Shown: one piece after another, positions 28,649 through 33,484 of the stretch
Numbering within the stretch: the stretch's first letter is position 1
Layout: each line of letters begins with the position of its first letter
Position numbers and translations under genes: made by a program
The notes under the pieces: generated by a model
Database searches by the model: none
Told to the model about the DNA's origin: nothing
What the model saw: only the letters and a program-made list of their open reading frames with translations
Source of the DNA: an uncultured virus (IMG/VR IMGVR_UViG_3300025623_000002)
Lineage: Duplodnaviria > Heunggongvirae > Uroviricota > Caudoviricetes
DNA: 33,560 bases
IMG/VR virus record: IMGVR_UViG_3300025623_000002
Reading direction: 5' to 3' (one strand)

Positions 28649-29131
28649 TCATTTCCCCCTTGCCATAACTTCAGCACACCTTCTACAATAGTGTAACTCT
28701 TTAGGTGAACCCTTTGAATGTATTTTACCATCTCTTATATATTTTTTAGTGCCTAGAGATACCGGTTTTTTGCATCGAACACAGCGAAATTTACTAAGAT
28801 TAGAATTTGGTTTTTTCTTTTCTTTTCCTTCAGGTCGCCCACTTGCATTAAATCCTTTAATACCATATTGCACTTCACCTTCTTGTGCCATTGATGTTCC
28901 TAACCTAGTTTTTCTCTCTTCGATTAATTTTTTACCTTCAACATTCCTGTTTAGTGGTAAATCTGTTCCTCTTCCCATTGTTCTACTAGTGCCTTTGGGT
29001 GCATGACCTTCCTCTTCAATAGATTTTACTCTTTCGTTAGGTTTTAATCGTTCACCACCCATTATATCAACAGGTTTCCTGTTCCTATTCTTTCTAGGCC
29101 GATTTCTTTTAATTAAATCAAACCAAGTCAT
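28649..29131 (-). CDS. W-leader basic protein with C-terminal Zn finger
   Basis: MTWFDLIKR; CVRC...CRRC. Confidence 0.72.
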   Translation of the reverse strand: MTWFDLIKRNRPRKNRNRKPVDIMGGERLKPNERVKSIEEEGHAPKGTSRTMGRGTDLPLNRNVEGKKLIEERKTRLGTSMAQEGEVQYGIKGFNASGRPEGKEKKKPNSNLSKFRCVRCKKPVSLGTKKYIRDGKIHSKGSPKELHYCRRCAEVMARGK

Positions 29132-29394
29132 TTTTTCCCACCTTCTAATATATTCCTACTAACTTGGCAACACAATCTAATCTTTTGTGTACTTTCTAAA
29201 AACCAAAAAGAATCCTTATCCCAATCAAATTTATTCTCAACATGATTACAAAGTTCTCTTCTTCCCATGTTTTGCAAATCACCATCTATACTAACATCAA
29301 GAATATCACCTTTCGGATGCACTAACTTCTTATCTAACCAAACATAGGTACTACCCATGAATGCAATCAATTTTCTAATTATCCATTGCTTCAT
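29128..29394 (-). CDS. Hypothetical protein
   Basis: 88 aa; AGGTGA SD; ATGA overlaps. Confidence 0.7.
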   Translation of the reverse strand: MKQWIIRKLIAFMGSTYVWLDKKLVHPKGDILDVSIDGDLQNMGRRELCNHVENKFDWDKDSFWFLESTQKIRLCCQVSRNILEGGKK

Positions 29395-30092
29395 ACTAAA
29401 TCACCTACTACAATATCATGAATATTATTTGAACTATCTAAATATTGCAATATTAGTTTTACTTTTTCTTCATGCTTGATAACATCGTCATAAAAAATAT
29501 CTATAGATGAAGGAAACAAATATACATTCTCATGCTTTAATTGCCATACTTTATTACTGTAACTACCAGTTTCATCCCACGTTGTTATATTTTCATCGTA
29601 AATAGTCAATGGTCTAATTACCAGTAAGTTATCCATGTGATTTAGTAGTTCATTTAAAGGCTGGTGGAAAATGGAAGTTCTGTTGTTTTCGGAGAGCCAT
29701 CCATCATCTTCTTCTTGCATTGCGTTATACTCTTCCCACATTCTTTCATTCTCTAATTCATTTTCTGTTTTTTCCGGTTCAATCATATGGAGTTTATTAT
29801 ATCTTTTCGTTATATTATTTTTAGCAATATTAACTATCTTTTTGAATTTTTCATTCAACACATTATGCCCATTAAGAGTTAGACCACGATTACGCTTAAT
29901 CCAATTAATAGTTTCTTCCTTAGTTTTCTGAGTTTCAATTGGTTGGCTCTTAGTCCAAGCAGACGGTTGTTCATGATATTTTTTCGGAGTAACATTTCCA
30001 CCTGACTTATTAGGACTTGACTTATTTCTATTCTTCTTTTGAGCATTACTAGGCCACTTCTTTTTTCTTTTTAGAATATCAAACCAAGTCAT
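29391..30092 (-). CDS. W-leader hypothetical protein
   Basis: MTWFDILKR; GGGTGA SD. Confidence 0.75.
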   Translation of the reverse strand: MTWFDILKRKKKWPSNAQKKNRNKSSPNKSGGNVTPKKYHEQPSAWTKSQPIETQKTKEETINWIKRNRGLTLNGHNVLNEKFKKIVNIAKNNITKRYNKLHMIEPEKTENELENERMWEEYNAMQEEDDGWLSENNRTSIFHQPLNELLNHMDNLLVIRPLTIYDENITTWDETGSYSNKVWQLKHENVYLFPSSIDIFYDDVIKHEEKVKLILQYLDSSNNIHDIVVGDLV

Positions 30093-30096
30093 TTTT

Positions 30097-30525
30097 TCAC
30101 CCTTTATTTTCTATGCCTAATTTAACATTTGGTGTTCCAAACAAACCATCAATAATTCGCCTGTATGGTTTACTAATATAACTATTGTATGCAACAAAAT
30201 CTATTAATTCTTGAACGGAACTAAATTCTGTCTTAGTTAAATATTGTTCTATTTCTTCAGAATCCCACATAAAATGCCCCCCATTAGAAAACGAATTACC
30301 ATCCAGTCTTTTGGGAGAACCACGCTCATCATATTTTTTATATTGTAATCCTAATCTAGATGCTGTGTTTTTAATTTCTTCTTCAATTTCATTAGACCAA
30401 GAAATAGGAATATAACCAATTGCCTTTTGTTGATTTGAATTAAACATATTTTCTAATTCTCTTAATTTATTTAGATTGTGTTCTTTATCGAACCTTTCAT
30501 TCTTTAAAACACTAAACCAATCCAT
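30097..30525 (-). CDS. W-leader hypothetical protein
   Basis: MDWFSVLKN; GGTGA SD. Confidence 0.75.
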   Translation of the reverse strand: MDWFSVLKNERFDKEHNLNKLRELENMFNSNQQKAIGYIPISWSNEIEEEIKNTASRLGLQYKKYDERGSPKRLDGNSFSNGGHFMWDSEEIEQYLTKTEFSSVQELIDFVAYNSYISKPYRRIIDGLFGTPNVKLGIENKG

Positions 30526-30667
30526 TTTATCACCAAAGTTGTGGGTACTGAAATGTTTTACCTAATGAAAACTGAAAAATGTGGTGGAATTTATTTAGCA
30601 CTAGCGCGATTTTTTTTGTTGGGTAGTAACCATAAACAGTATAAGGATAATAGTAATGTGCCATTTA

Positions 30668-30877
30668 TTATTCCTCGATAAACTTTAGTGTTGTTTGTTT
30701 TGAATTAGGTTTCTGTTCATCAGCACTAATAACTTTAGTTGGTTTAGGTTTACCTTTAAACCATTTACTCGCAGGTTTAGATGATACAGTTGCACCGTCA
30801 ATTAATTCTTCAGGTAGTTTTGTTTGTGTTGTATTCTTTTTATTTTTACTATCTTTGATAATATTAAACCAGTTCAC
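30668..30877 (-). CDS. W-leader basic small protein
   Basis: GTG start, MNWFNIIKD; GGTGA SD. Confidence 0.65.
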   Translation of the reverse strand: MNWFNIIKDSKNKKNTTQTKLPEELIDGATVSSKPASKWFKGKPKPTKVISADEQKPNSKQTTLKFIEE

Positions 30878-31056
30878 AACATCACCAATAGATTAACCCG
30901 ATACACTATCCTTAATTAAATTAGTTATTAATAATAATAAAATAAAAAAAAAATTAAAACGCAAAGCATATGGTTGGATAAATATATTGTTGTCCAACCA
31001 TATGGTAGCATTCATTGTTAAATGTGCTACCATACGGGGTTTCGGGGGGAATACTA

Positions 31057-31077
31057 ATGTTTGACGAAGAAGATTGA
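31057..31077 (+). CDS. Minigene MFDEED (copy 1)
   Basis: ATGTTTGACGAAGAAGATTGA after a G-rich SD. Confidence 0.4.
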   Translation: MFDEED

Positions 31078-31176
31078 TTAACAAGTTAAGTCTATCATAC
31101 GGGAGTATTCCCCCCAACCATATGGTAATGCACTTTGTACTTATTACCTTATATGTATGGTAATTATACCATTATT

Positions 31177-31380
31177 ATGGTAAACTTTACACGAGCGGAC
31201 TTTCAATTACTTGCAGTGTTAGCAATTGATATGAAATTAACAGAAGAACAAAAGAACATATATGTTGCTAATCTAAAACGCACTAATATTAACTTCAATG
31301 AAGATAAATTCAGAAAGGCTATGATGATTGAATATAACAATCGTCATATTGCCGGCGAATTTGCAATAGGTGGGATTTAA
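31177..31380 (+). CDS. Small early-type viral protein (MVNFTRADFQLLA...NINFNEDKFRKA)
   Basis: TTATAT about 25 nt upstream of ATG 31177 suggests a leaderless start. Confidence 0.65.
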   Translation: MVNFTRADFQLLAVLAIDMKLTEEQKNIYVANLKRTNINFNEDKFRKAMMIEYNNRHIAGEFAIGGI

Positions 31381-31464
31381 ATGAAAGAATGCTATAAATG
31401 TGGAAAAATAATCAGTGATAATAAATATTGTTGTTATTCTTGTATTAAAAGTGAGGCGATATAA
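31381..31464 (+). CDS. 27-aa Zn-finger microprotein MKECYKCGKIISDNKYCCYSCIKSEAI
   Basis: CxxC...CxxC; AGGTGG SD; directly follows the previous stop. Confidence 0.55.
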   Translation: MKECYKCGKIISDNKYCCYSCIKSEAI

Positions 31465-31484
31465 TGTTTGACGAAGAAGATTAA
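31464..31484 (+). CDS. Minigene MFDEED (copy 2)
   Basis: TAATG coupling to the Zn-finger gene; GAGG SD. Confidence 0.45.
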   Translation: MFDEED

Positions 31485-31705
31485 TATAACTCAAACGGGC
31501 AAATGCGAAGACTACTGAGCGAACTTTGTAGGTTAATGAACTCGGCCATAATGGTTTTCTATTGAAATACCATTTGGATAGCCAACCTACCCATTGTAAG
31601 TCCCGACCTAATAAAATTCCCTTCGGGGTCTTAATAATCACAAAGTTCTCACAACCATATGGTAGCATCAATAAAGATGCGCTACCACATCGGGGGTGAA
31701 AATAA

Positions 31706-31726
31706 GTGTACGACGACGAAGATTGA
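31706..31726 (+). CDS. Minigene MYDDED (copy 3)
   Basis: GTGTACGACGACGAAGATTGA after GGGGGTGA SD; in-frame TAA immediately upstream. Confidence 0.4.
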   Translation: MYDDED

Positions 31727-31822
31727 TTATCCTAACAATACAAGTGTAAGTCCTACCACACCATATGGTTTGGTAACTTTGTGGAAACCCTAATTATAAT
31801 AAAATTATAACAAATTACTAAA

Positions 31823-32003
31823 AGGGCATCGGGTAGCAGTGACTTTACTATAAAATACGATTAAGGTTCTTGCAATCCGTTCCGGTATGTCGAAGTTTCT
31901 AGAATGTCGGGATAGCGGTCAGGCATAGTGTTTGTGTCTTGCGTCGTGGTTTTTTATATCGTGAAATTAATCACTGTGCGTGTGTATTGCTACTTTCAGC
32001 CCT
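31823..32003 (+). ncRNA. Candidate structured non-coding RNA
   Basis: Ends pair (AGGGC/GCCCT; GTAGCAGTG/TATTGCTAC); nested stem TACGATTAAGG/TCTTGCGTCGTG; TATA-like sequence about 25 nt upstream. Confidence 0.35.
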
Positions 32004-32011
32004 AAAGGTAA

Positions 32012-32296
32012 TCAGATTACAATGGGAATGGGTGTTAGGGAAAGAAGAAGAGTATTATATTGTTCAATATTATCTTCAGTAATATCACCAAAGGCATTTA
32101 TTGCATCAATGTTTTTCTTCATTATTGTTAGTGCTTTAGTTGCTTCTTCTACTACTTCAGATGCAAAATCACCTCTAAATTTTAAGGACTTAATAATAAT
32201 CTTATGTACTGAACCAGATTTAGATTGTGATATTTCTATTTCAAAGGGATAAGACATATTTAATATCTGTTCGGGTGTGTTTGTATGTTCTGCCAT
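32012..32296 (-). CDS. Hypothetical early protein
   Basis: Likely start ATG 32296 (MAEHTNTPE), downstream of the divergent promoter. Confidence 0.55.
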   Translation of the reverse strand: MAEHTNTPEQILNMSYPFEIEISQSKSGSVHKIIIKSLKFRGDFASEVVEEATKALTIMKKNIDAINAFGDITEDNIEQYNTLLLSLTPIPIVI

Positions 32297-32309
32297 AATC
32301 CAAGCATGA

Positions 32310-32390
32310 TAAATATACATATGAGGTAATGATTACAAAGTATCATACCATATGGTTGTGAACTTTGTGAACTCACCCTATATGTGAATA
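32310..32390. promoter_or_regulatory. Symmetric divergent promoter/operator
   Basis: ACAAAGT-N5-ACCATATGGT-N5-ACTTTGT (32335-32368) with TATA-like sequences pointing outward on both sides. Confidence 0.6.
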
Positions 32391-32436
32391 TATTCACCCC
32401 TCATTGTGCTGAGGGTAATACCACAGAGAAAGGAAA

Positions 32437-32919
32437 GTGAATAAAATGGCAAAATACACAACAACCGAAATAAGAGATATAATGACGACATGGGTGGATT
32501 CTGAAAAGAACACTACCGGATGGATGAAAGGAGCAGTTGAGGATGCTTGCGCTAATTTAGATGCAGGAGAAATAACTGAATCTGTATTCAGTTCTTCAAT
32601 TCAAGGAATGTGCAGACAACTTAAGGAGAATCCACTATCACGACGCGGAACCAATTTCTCATATGATGAAACACGAGAAATTAACCTCGCAGAATGCAAG
32701 ACCTTTACCACAACAATTGAAACAGCATTTAATAAATTAAGCCCAGTGGCTCAAACTTATTACCGAGCAAAGATTTCAGACCAACGCCCAGCAGGAATAT
32801 ACGCCAACGGCGCAGATTTAGCCGGATTTATGTACGAAAGATGCGAAGGCGAAGCAAAAATTCAGCAAAAGGCTGATAAAAAGTCAAGCAAAGCAAGTGC
32901 GAAAGGGGGCAATATCTGA
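32437..32919 (+). CDS. Hypothetical early protein
   Basis: 160 aa; GTG 32437 or ATG 32446; visibly more GC-rich than the late block. Confidence 0.75.
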   Translation: MNKMAKYTTTEIRDIMTTWVDSEKNTTGWMKGAVEDACANLDAGEITESVFSSSIQGMCRQLKENPLSRRGTNFSYDETREINLAECKTFTTTIETAFNKLSPVAQTYYRAKISDQRPAGIYANGADLAGFMYERCEGEAKIQQKADKKSSKASAKGGNI

Positions 32920-32977
32920 GGTTGTCCCTTCCCTCGGCACACTTGGGGTTTCTCACAAAGTTCCACACCATATGGTT

Positions 32978-33035
32978 GGATAGTATATTCTTAGATTTTT
33001 TAAGGATAGTATATTCTTAGGATTTTTAAGGATAG
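32978..33035 (+). repeat. 26-bp-period tandem repeat
   Basis: GGATAGTATATTCTTAG at 32978 and 33004; partial GGATAG at 33030. Confidence 0.8.
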
Positions 33036-33431
33036 GAAAAAAAGAGAGGGTACATCGGATGGAAAAGTTGCTTTATATATGAATGGAATGTATATGGATT
33101 ATAGATGATGGGAGAATCCGTTAAAGTGCGTGTTTCTCTATAACATCATATAATGACCACTAACTTAAGGGAAAAACATTTCACTACCTATTTTAATGGT
33201 TCATAAGGATAGTAATATCTCCCATCCCATATAATATAATATAAAATATCAATATTTATACTATATAGGATATATCATAATAAATATAATAATACATGAT
33301 TTAGTTATCATGGTTTTCTCACACTTTCTCATCGTTTCTCATATGATATGAGAAAAAGAAAGGGGTAAAAGGTTAGAAACTAACCTAATTAAGTACTTAT
33401 TTATTATAATTATCATATTATCATATTATTA

Positions 33432-33484
<53 letters not shown>

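Follow-up and report, generated by a model that had tools for sequence, protein, structure and literature searches.

Very short acidic reading frames with a coding signature in the control hub of group-B magrovirus-like viruses

Can open reading frames (ORFs) of only six codons be functional genes of a virus? Gene callers discard genes of this size and, to our knowledge, few have been accepted anywhere. The question is raised by an uncultured virus (IMG/VR record IMGVR_UViG_3300025623_000002), of which a stretch of 33,560 nt, hereafter the window, was analyzed. The original prediction, made from the letters of the window, described three units of 21 nt at 31057, 31464, and 31706, each led by a Shine-Dalgarno sequence (SD) and encoding an acidic hexapeptide, and proposed a functional acidic micro-peptide or a ribosome-dependent regulatory element. 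Our reading of the sequence agrees with this description, and the three units, here called mini-ORFs (or copies) 1 to 3, are as follows:

31057-31077, plus strand: mini-ORF 1, MFDEED (ATG TTT GAC GAA GAA GAT TGA, read from the sequence)
31464-31484, plus strand: mini-ORF 2, MFDEED (ATG TTT GAC GAA GAA GAT TAA, read from the sequence)
31706-31726, plus strand: mini-ORF 3, MYDDED (GTG TAC GAC GAC GAA GAT TGA, read from the sequence)
31044-31049, plus strand: SD of copy 1, GGGGGG, 7 nt before the ATG and inside the 5' arm of a stem named P2 (31044-31055)
31453-31456, plus strand: SD of copy 2, GAGG, 7 nt before the start
31692-31699, plus strand: SD of copy 3, GGGGGTGA, 6 nt before the start
31451-31487, plus strand: copy 2 of a 37-nt repeat made of SD and mini-ORF (repeat family D1)

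Each of the three copies has four acidic residues, at positions 3-6. A repeat search of the window placed all three units in the single 37-nt family D1. It also recovered two predicted features of their surroundings, namely the upstream hairpin context common to copies 1 and 3, found as family D2 (ACCATATGGTAGCAT..GCTACCA), and the location of the SD of copy 1 within a perfect 12-bp inverted repeat (31044-31055 with 31104-31115), found as the core (GGGGGGAATACT/AGTATTCCCCCC) of inverted repeat I7 (31044-31064/31095-31115). The genome that holds the window is one contig of 78,572 bp with 30.6% G+C. A frame-aware pattern scan of this whole genome returned these three units and no others, and they were its sole acidic mini-ORFs, on both strands, when an SD was required. 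With the SD filter off, 5 acidic mini-ORFs were counted in the genome against a mean of 1.8 (maximum 5) in 30 shuffles. The count alone is not significant, because the shuffles reach 5 too; the significant points are the membership in one repeat family, the clustering within 670 bp, and the conservation.

Conservation was examined by searching metagenome contigs with the pattern CCATATGGTAGCAT-N9-17-GCTACCA, which covers the palindromic operator and the hairpin upstream of the mini-ORF and leaves the mini-ORF itself out of the query. This retrieved 32 loci on 28 contigs, in which we looked for units that had kept the repeat while breaking the frame or losing the start. Instead, an SD, a start, an intact acidic ORF, and a stop were found in 32/32 distinct 150-nt units, and a second operator closes 30 of them. 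The peptides beginning with MF or MY were MFDEED, MFDDED, MFDDDE, MFDDEE, MFDDEEN, MFNDEE, MFDDDA, MYDDED, MYDEED, and MYDDTDDE; the others were MDEEEEEQE, MDEEEEEEQE, MDEDEEEEQE, and one ending in ..DDEDDDC. Orthologs of mini-ORF 1 encode MFDEED, MFDDED, MFDDDE, MFDDDA, MFNDEE, and MYDDTDDE, and those of mini-ORF 3 encode MYDDED (from ATG), MYDEED (from GTG), MFDDEE, MFDDEEN, MFDDDE, MFNDEE, MDEEEEEQE, MDEEEEEEQE, and MDEDEEEEQE. Mini-ORF 2 is present in locus L089, where it has a TGA stop. The IMG/VR relative L001, in which a neighboring 142-residue protein is 90% identical, has three copies: two of ATGTTCGATGAAGAAGATTAA (MFDEED, with synonymous TTC and GAT codons) and one of ATGTTTGATGATGAAGAAAACTAA (MFDDEEN).

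The differences between the copies of the window had been said to preserve coding sense, and the changes found in relatives do the same: they are ATG/GTG and TAA/TGA exchanges, changes at the third positions of GAN codons, and 3-nt insertions or deletions, so that length differences among units are whole codons. Third positions were then compared with first and second positions, as the prediction had suggested in substance, in an alignment of 12 six-codon units of type 1 (the type with an SD-containing stem, see below). The sense third positions were variable in 5/5 cases, the first and second positions in 2/10, and the flanking columns in 36/116; the start was invariant and the stop was only TGA or TAA. 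The chance that all five third positions fall among the 7 variable sites out of 15 is ~0.007 (hypergeometric, calculated by hand). Since these third-position changes swap Asp and Glu freely, it is the acidity and the frame that are kept, and not a nucleotide word.

A frame-based scan of the same loci added copies that stand outside the cassettes. Some are coupled by TAATG or TGATG to the ends of two unrelated ORFs, others stand behind an early-type promoter (MKDDEEEEEN, MKYDDEEEEEED, and MKSDEEEEEED), and variants ending in Cys were also seen. Across 39 distinct contexts, the start is ATG in 30, GTG in 5, and CTG in 4, and the stop is TAA in 32 and TGA in 7. The ORFs have 6-12 codons (six in 27 contexts), with Phe or Tyr as residue 2 in 31. 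The four CTG contexts are the only possible start losses, and their true start is uncertain because an in-frame GTG persists 9 nt upstream, inside the SD, in each of them. Tyr is encoded by TAC in 8/8 cases and Asp by GAC in 26/88, compared with 17% TAC and 11.5% GAC in the long ORFs of the genome; this choice resembles that of highly translated genes, which is indicative only, as related rows make the counts non-independent. The intact frames and the coding signature in relatives support the proposal of a functional micro-peptide or a ribosome-dependent regulatory element. Judged from these alignments, selection acts on the reading frame rather than on the nucleotide string, and we infer that the mini-ORFs are, with high probability, translated and selected as coding sequences.

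The gene content of the genome identifies it as a group-B magrovirus-like virus of marine archaea and not as a bacteriophage. All matches of its portal protein (10 records, 23-30% identity) were to tailed viruses that infect haloarchaea or Methanomassiliicoccales. The plus-strand half encodes a UvrD-type helicase, an ATP-dependent DNA ligase, an RFC-like ATPase, and a family-B DNA polymerase in two ORFs, as well as an ERCC4 nuclease, a ribonucleotide-reductase fragment, a TFIIB-like zinc-ribbon protein, and a ThiF-family protein. According to passages of PMC5434244, the group-B magroviruses, whose hosts are Marine Group II archaea, are marked by a polymerase in split form, by a reductase and ligases, and by a structural block like that of haloviruses. 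The split polymerase (L111, 2803-5785) and the 224-residue ThiF-family protein (L110, 10097-10771) lie outside the window in the same genome. The TFIIB-like protein (L110, 9059-9979) has a zinc ribbon (E 2.8e-5) and a cyclin repeat (E 0.003), both below the Pfam cut-off. An SD-like 4-mer precedes 42/67 long ORFs, compared with 7.9% of random sites; SD-led initiation is normal for this virus.

Late genes occupy the minus strand up to ~43.2 kb and early and replication genes the plus strand from ~45 kb (genome coordinates). The mini-ORFs are placed in the ~2-kb hub that separates these two blocks, and all six CCATATGG palindromes of the genome are confined to it. Counted over three complete or near-complete genomes, the present one of 78.6 kb and two others of 96.1 and 99.3 kb, there are 3, 3, and 2 SD-led acidic mini-ORFs, respectively, all in the hub, together with all 6, 8, and 6 of the CCATATGG sites. 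The hub of the window includes the following elements:

30966-31006, no strand assigned: central palindrome GCATATGGTTGGATAA..TTGTCCAACCATATGG (inverted repeat I15) at the late/early boundary, adjoining a 35-nt A/T run
30997-31006, 31117-31126, 31654-31663, 31760-31769, 32347-32356, and 32967-32976, no strand assigned: copies of the operator palindrome ACCATATGGT, with a variant at 30966-30975
31117-31126, no strand assigned: operator ACCATATGGT followed by ACTTTGT and ACCTTATATGT, promoter-like, upstream of a 67-codon ORF that starts at 31177
31381-31464, plus strand: 27-codon Cys-rich ORF (CxxC..CxxC), the stop of which overlaps the start of mini-ORF 2

The boundary palindrome is also found at the late/early boundary of relatives, in either orientation relative to the mini-ORFs. 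The operator ACCATATGGT frequently sits between CAAAG(T)..(A)CTTTG arms and is restricted to the 2-kb hub (6/6 CCATATGG sites); the palindrome with its CAAAG/CTTTG arms is retained in relatives down to 47% helicase identity. Before early ORFs, the operator is followed by ACTTTGT and then by an ACC[TC]NATATGT box ~26 nt upstream of a leaderless-looking ATG, and an identical operator/ACTTTGT layout precedes early ORFs in L001. The palindrome is probably an operator or an upstream element of early promoters, and the copy at 31117-31126 would serve as a promoter-like element for the 67-codon ORF.

Copies 1 and 3 belong to cassettes bounded by operators:

30995-31128, plus strand: cassette 1 (operator, P1 hairpin, SD, mini-ORF, anti-SD, operator), with 14 distinct homologous units of 133-137 nt and a mean column identity of 89%
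31004-31031, plus strand: P1 hairpin (GGTAGCAT/GTGCTACC) of 8 pairs, the 5' arm of which overlaps the operator ACCATATGGT
31044-31055, plus strand: 5' arm of stem P2, including the SD, which pairs with 31104-31115
31104-31115, plus strand: anti-SD, the 3' arm of P2 (AGTATTCCCCCC), seen as an inverted repeat, in the alignment, and in the RNA fold
31652-31771, plus strand: cassette 3 (operator, P1 hairpin, SD, mini-ORF 3, operator at 31760-31769), with 16 distinct homologous units

In type-1 cassettes, the SD forms the 5' arm of an 11-12-bp stem, and the anti-SD forms the 3' arm just before the next operator. The P1 pairs are invariant in 14/14 units and hence uninformative for covariation. In P2, 97.4% of the cells across the 14 units are paired and 2 pairs show compensatory changes (6 cells), with the caveat that related sequences can outscore shuffles even without structure. 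The RNA fold of 31036-31120 has -33.5 kcal/mol (z -5.2, equaled by 0/200 shuffles), and the L001 copy has z -2.9. Because P2 is so stable, initiation may take place only while the RNA is being made. A check for a leader attenuator found the single conserved SD/anti-SD stem in type-1 cassettes and demonstrated no alternative pairing. Rfam gave no match for the whole window at the gathering score or for 30880-32450 at E <= 1, and ARAGORN found no tRNA or tmRNA.

The distribution was sampled through the nearby helicase, using forty loci with 96-32% identity. SD-led acidic mini-ORFs were found only at a helicase identity of at least 84% and with the hub on the locus (2 in L185, 3 in L187, and 1-2 in L193). 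None was found in those loci at 47-70% identity that retain 4-10 CCATATGG operators, and the remaining helicase loci gave one probable chance match, MEDELY. An approximately exact pattern of the window had 0 loci in IMG/VR, and blastn of 30880-32000 against the phage collection gave no match. The 16-mer AACCATATGGTAGCAT was found at 57 IMG/VR loci, with mini-ORFs in one relative only and what look like chance matches elsewhere. The pattern MFD[DE]ED had 18 IMG/VR matches, two of which are minigenes of the relative and 16 the C-termini of frames open for at least 89 codons. In 185,579 prokaryote genomes it had 72 matches, none a comparable minigene with viral context; nine had fewer than 30 open codons upstream, and the match in a Marine Group II bin is antisense inside a 178-codon gene. 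The best explanation is that the mini-ORFs are a clade-specific family, restricted to the hub, of group-B magrovirus-like viruses, as far as the sampled sequences tell. As a separate observation, MFD[DE]ED and a stop end long ORFs in unrelated viral contigs of IMG/VR (L059-L076), and a family ending in ..SRMFDDED, which overlaps the next gene, occurs in 13 contigs. An assignment of these long ORFs as SSB-like tails was unsupported, Pfam being blank for four of them.

Hubs generally have 2-4 copies, and one locus has four within about 800 nt. The start of copy 2 overlaps the stop of the Cys-rich ORF (TAATG), so that the two are stop-start coupled. Since four related loci lack mini-ORF 2 and keep a longer Cys-rich ORF instead (..MKEKLEMALENKTEEMKI), copy 2 is a 37-nt insertion that replaced the 3' end of this ORF in the window and in L089. 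Two module arrangements were seen among 9 mapped loci, with inversion breakpoints at operator palindromes: in the window, L087, L089, and L096, the mini-ORF module and the late genes point in opposite directions from each other, with the module heading away, and in L001, L086, L090, and L099 it heads towards them. Between the window (30995-32480) and L001 (240-3190), a 90%-related virus, the early module is inverted relative to both flanks. Either the operators recombine, or the segment is truly invertible.

How, then, might the mini-ORFs act? The reading that we prefer, and hold weakly, is that they are regulatory mini-cistrons working in cis at the level of the ribosome, which would pause on the early acidic residues. 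In this model, the acidic run directly after the start codon would make the ribosome pause or fall off, and ribosome occupancy of a ~30-nt patch between operator palindromes would set the folding, stability, or read-through of the hub transcript. For copy 1, the 12-bp SD/anti-SD stem would permit initiation only in a short co-transcriptional window. We favor this model because pausing at acidic starts is known, the peptide is constrained only loosely and mainly in its charge, a hairpin controls access to the SD, and the location is restricted to the hub. According to passages of PMC11282234, early acidic residues pause or destabilize bacterial ribosomes while the exit tunnel is still empty, and published abstracts describe the same for eukaryotes. 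At least two acidic residues within the first ~10-30 of the nascent chain, the criterion given in that part of PMC11282234, are present in all three copies. The MgtL leader and the EttA-dependent ORFs of E. coli share with the mini-ORFs an early Asp/Glu run in a short SD-led ORF of a regulatory region, and their effect needs a short nascent chain (PMC11282234, in the same passages). These acidic-pausing cases differ in that they are bacterial or eukaryotic, often proline-helped, and regulate a defined downstream gene, whereas the magrovirus mini-ORFs belong to an archaeal host, consist entirely of the acidic run, and occur in several copies with no single target. A six-codon ORF whose peptide acts on its own ribosome is the MAGDIS upstream ORF of the AdoMetDC mRNA; it differs in being eukaryotic, scanning-dependent, and polyamine-sensing, with one fixed sequence upstream of one gene. 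Pausing in the archaeal ribosome is what we infer, as is any regulatory output.

Several points weigh against action in cis. The acidic effect is context-dependent even in E. coli, as stated in passages of PMC11282234. The copies have no consistent target downstream: copy 1 stands 100 nt ahead of a leaderless-looking ORF, with that ORF's own promoter-like element in between; copy 2 and its analogs come last in their operons, with unrelated ORFs of 27 and 127 codons before them and a terminator-like hairpin behind; and copy 3 is followed by a putative non-coding RNA in the window and by late genes in L001. The orientation of the entire module to the late genes is also reversed in about half of the relatives. 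The significant hairpin is restricted to type-1 cassettes, and copies 2 and 3 of the window fold no better than shuffles (copy 3, z +0.56). The aromatic residue 2 (31/39 contexts) is not accounted for by pausing on an acidic run, and most destabilization work used runs longer than four acidic residues. Contigs at 31416-31566 (X18) and 31383-31591 (X20), from two of three RNA-library runs, of different studies, span copy 2 and count in favor of the model; such contigs are strandless and may contain DNA, and thus fix neither strand nor translation. No contig lies over copies 1 and 3, though contigs of this kind cannot show absence. Finally, we know of no description of the early-acidic effect for archaeal ribosomes.

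The alternatives place the function elsewhere or deny it. A free acidic peptide of the form M-F/Y-[D/E]n might act in trans in the infected cell, an unlikely reading taken by itself, which we nevertheless consider nearly as likely as action in cis. By titrating a hub protein that is basic or binds DNA, or by imitating an acidic C-terminal tail, it could switch the early/late hub in a manner that depends on dosage or time. Arguing for it, the same product class arises from three expression contexts (hairpin cassettes, TAATG/TGATG coupling, and an early promoter with MK[DYS]D..E(n)[ND]), hubs carry 2-4 copies, residue 2 is aromatic in 31/39 contexts, and codon choice is like that of highly expressed genes. 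In addition, a hub protein family has tethered acidic tails in a clade devoid of mini-ORFs and none in the mini-ORF clade: relatives at 47-50% helicase identity have 2-3 paralogs of this protein, two of them ending in a Pro-rich linker and ..GGEEEE or ..EVSEEE. A narrower version, doubtful and less probable again, is that the unprocessed hexa- to dodecapeptides would be free versions of these tails that titrate a partner, either basic or DNA-binding, and so set the timing of the switch from early to late. However, the contrast is weak because L189, L191, and L192 have neither feature, which breaks the complementarity and leaves essentially one phylogenetic contrast. Sequence and length are also very loose for a specific ligand (MFDEED to MKYDDEEEEEED, and MDDDDC), the stable stem sequestering the SD of copy 1 would limit output, and a scan of about 60 early-side ORFs turned up no receptor-like protein: neither TPR nor any similar Pfam family was matched by 23 + 5 + 40 queries (some repeated), most of which matched nothing. 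The 160-residue hub protein itself has no recognizable fold. Encoded at 32437-32919 in the window, it is helical, as is its family (L198-L205), with motifs P..RRG and H.R.GG.Y. It matches L201 paralogs pairwise at E 3e-4, and a profile search recovers the family with E down to 6e-62. It has no Pfam or PHROG family, and a protein-based locus search in IMG/VR gave no relatives; its model (predicted local distance difference test, pLDDT, 80) had no Foldseek match in PDB at E <= 0.001.

The lambda bar minigenes were the precedent invoked by the original prediction. They have two sense codons (AUG AUA) and then a stop, with no known conserved peptide class, and their effect is seen in hydrolase-deficient hosts. 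That analogy does not hold in its two-codon feature, given six codons in the window and 6-12 in relatives, and the host is archaeal. A ribosome or tRNA sink of this type, depressing host translation through release of peptidyl-tRNA (Asp/Glu), is improbable. It would fit the great strength of the SDs (up to AGGAGGTGAT) and the shortness of the ORFs (27/39 of six codons), and PMC2490762 describes E. coli minigenes of 3-8 codons that sequester tRNA as peptidyl-tRNA; such minigenes are likewise SD-led, the bar ones in a virus control region, and act through translation rather than through a folded product. Yet a sink would starve the virus's own Asp/Glu-rich proteins, and it leaves unexplained the acidic composition of at least six selected codons, the aromatic residue 2, and the SD-sequestering hairpin. 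Slightly less probable still are frames devoid of function that ride in small regulatory cassettes, which multiply and are shuffled through recombination at the operator palindromes. The palindromes do bound the cassettes, the early-module inversion between close relatives occurs exactly there, and copy 2 is an insertion found in the window and L089 and not in 4 other loci. There is also the precedent of the PeSL cassettes of T4-type phages, which, according to PMC2839356, are small repeated promoter/stem-loop cassettes in a plastic early region, where they drive recombinational shuffling. Our cassettes likewise lie in an early region and mark rearrangement borders (an inversion and an insertion); they differ from PeSL cassettes, which have no conserved coding frame, in carrying a mini-ORF, and their promoter or terminator activity is only putative. 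Hitch-hiking, however, does not predict 32/32 intact frames, third-position variation, and whole-codon indels, and the coupled and promoter-led copies keep the ORF outside any cassette. Very unlikely, too, is an untranslated motif, either a purine-rich (GAN)n protein-binding site or an antisense seed, although the region is rich in binding-site-like repeats and translation of the mini-ORFs is putative. Against such a motif, the invariant features are solely those of an ORF, the GAN third positions take all four bases (the Asp/Glu swap), which would break a sequence-specific site or antisense pairing, and even E <= 1 brought no Rfam match. The least probable of all is that the ORFs encode either the precursor of a microcin C-like modified peptide or an arbitrium-like quorum signal. 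mccA, the 7-codon microcin C precursor gene, is among the few accepted functional-peptide genes of such size and requires a C-terminal Asn and an adjacent MccB (ThiF-like). The genome does encode the ThiF-family protein (PF00899, E 3.7e-19), and 2/39 contexts end in Asn. The link was rejected, as the enzyme gene is ~12 kb distant rather than adjacent, is found in 4/5 records, including relatives without mini-ORFs (G003 and G005), and the window peptides end in Asp; moreover, the ThiF match begins at residue 13, which leaves no room for the N-terminal peptide-binding domain of MccB. Arbitrium signals are indeed hexapeptides, cut from a secreted precursor and sensed with a neighboring TPR receptor. 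The arbitrium idea, also raised by the original prediction, fails because precursor and receptor are lacking: the ORF is only six codons long and thus includes neither a leader nor a signal sequence, and the scan of early-side ORFs revealed no TPR receptor.

Neither the mini-ORFs nor the hub elements are mentioned in the magrovirus papers PMC5434244 and PMC11706807 (term search of the main texts), and full-text searches listed no literature linking magrovirus-like viruses with mini-ORFs. The family thus described is under clear purifying selection on its frame, and the viruses that carry it are abundant in the ocean and have uncultured Marine Group II archaea as hosts. Action at the ribosome would make the mini-ORFs the first candidates for nascent-peptide regulation in an archaeal system and a natural test of early-acidic destabilization in archaeal versus bacterial and eukaryotic ribosomes. 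Action of the peptides in trans would make them a viral effector of a new type; should the free-tail version be true, no class of functional viral gene products would be smaller, and archaea would have a peptide regulator of a new kind. Either way, the mini-ORFs mark a previously undescribed control hub with palindromic operators and a possibly invertible early module.

Other features of the hub and its borders were also observed. An RNA-library contig at 31829-32016 (depth 18.6) has adapter letters directly at both ends and lies downstream of a promoter-like element (operator at 31760, A/T box at about 31790-31810). It has no convincing ORF, extends past a T-run at ~31945, and has no Rfam match (fold z -1.1); it is possibly an abundant non-coding RNA. 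Contigs in two RNA-library runs start exactly at 32422, with adapter letters before this position. A small hairpin (32398-32415) ends shortly before it, and the GTG of ORF 32437-32919 follows 15 nt downstream; 32422 could be a transcript 5' end or a processing site. On the late side, four consecutive minus-strand ORFs (28649-30877) begin with MTWFDLIK, MTWFDILK, MDWFSVLK, and MNWFNIIK, mostly followed by a basic stretch, and numerous further late ORFs begin with MSW[KQN]; this common N-terminus is possibly a shared signal (packaging or processing?) or the trace of a paralogous family. Beside the last operator are 2-3 tandem repeats of 26-27 nt (GGATAGTATATTCTTAG.TTTTTTAA), and a (GA/TC)n microsatellite is visible as an ERERER.. 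frame (32978-33038 and about 33430-33470 for these features). These repeats are iteron-like and may mark a possible replication origin.

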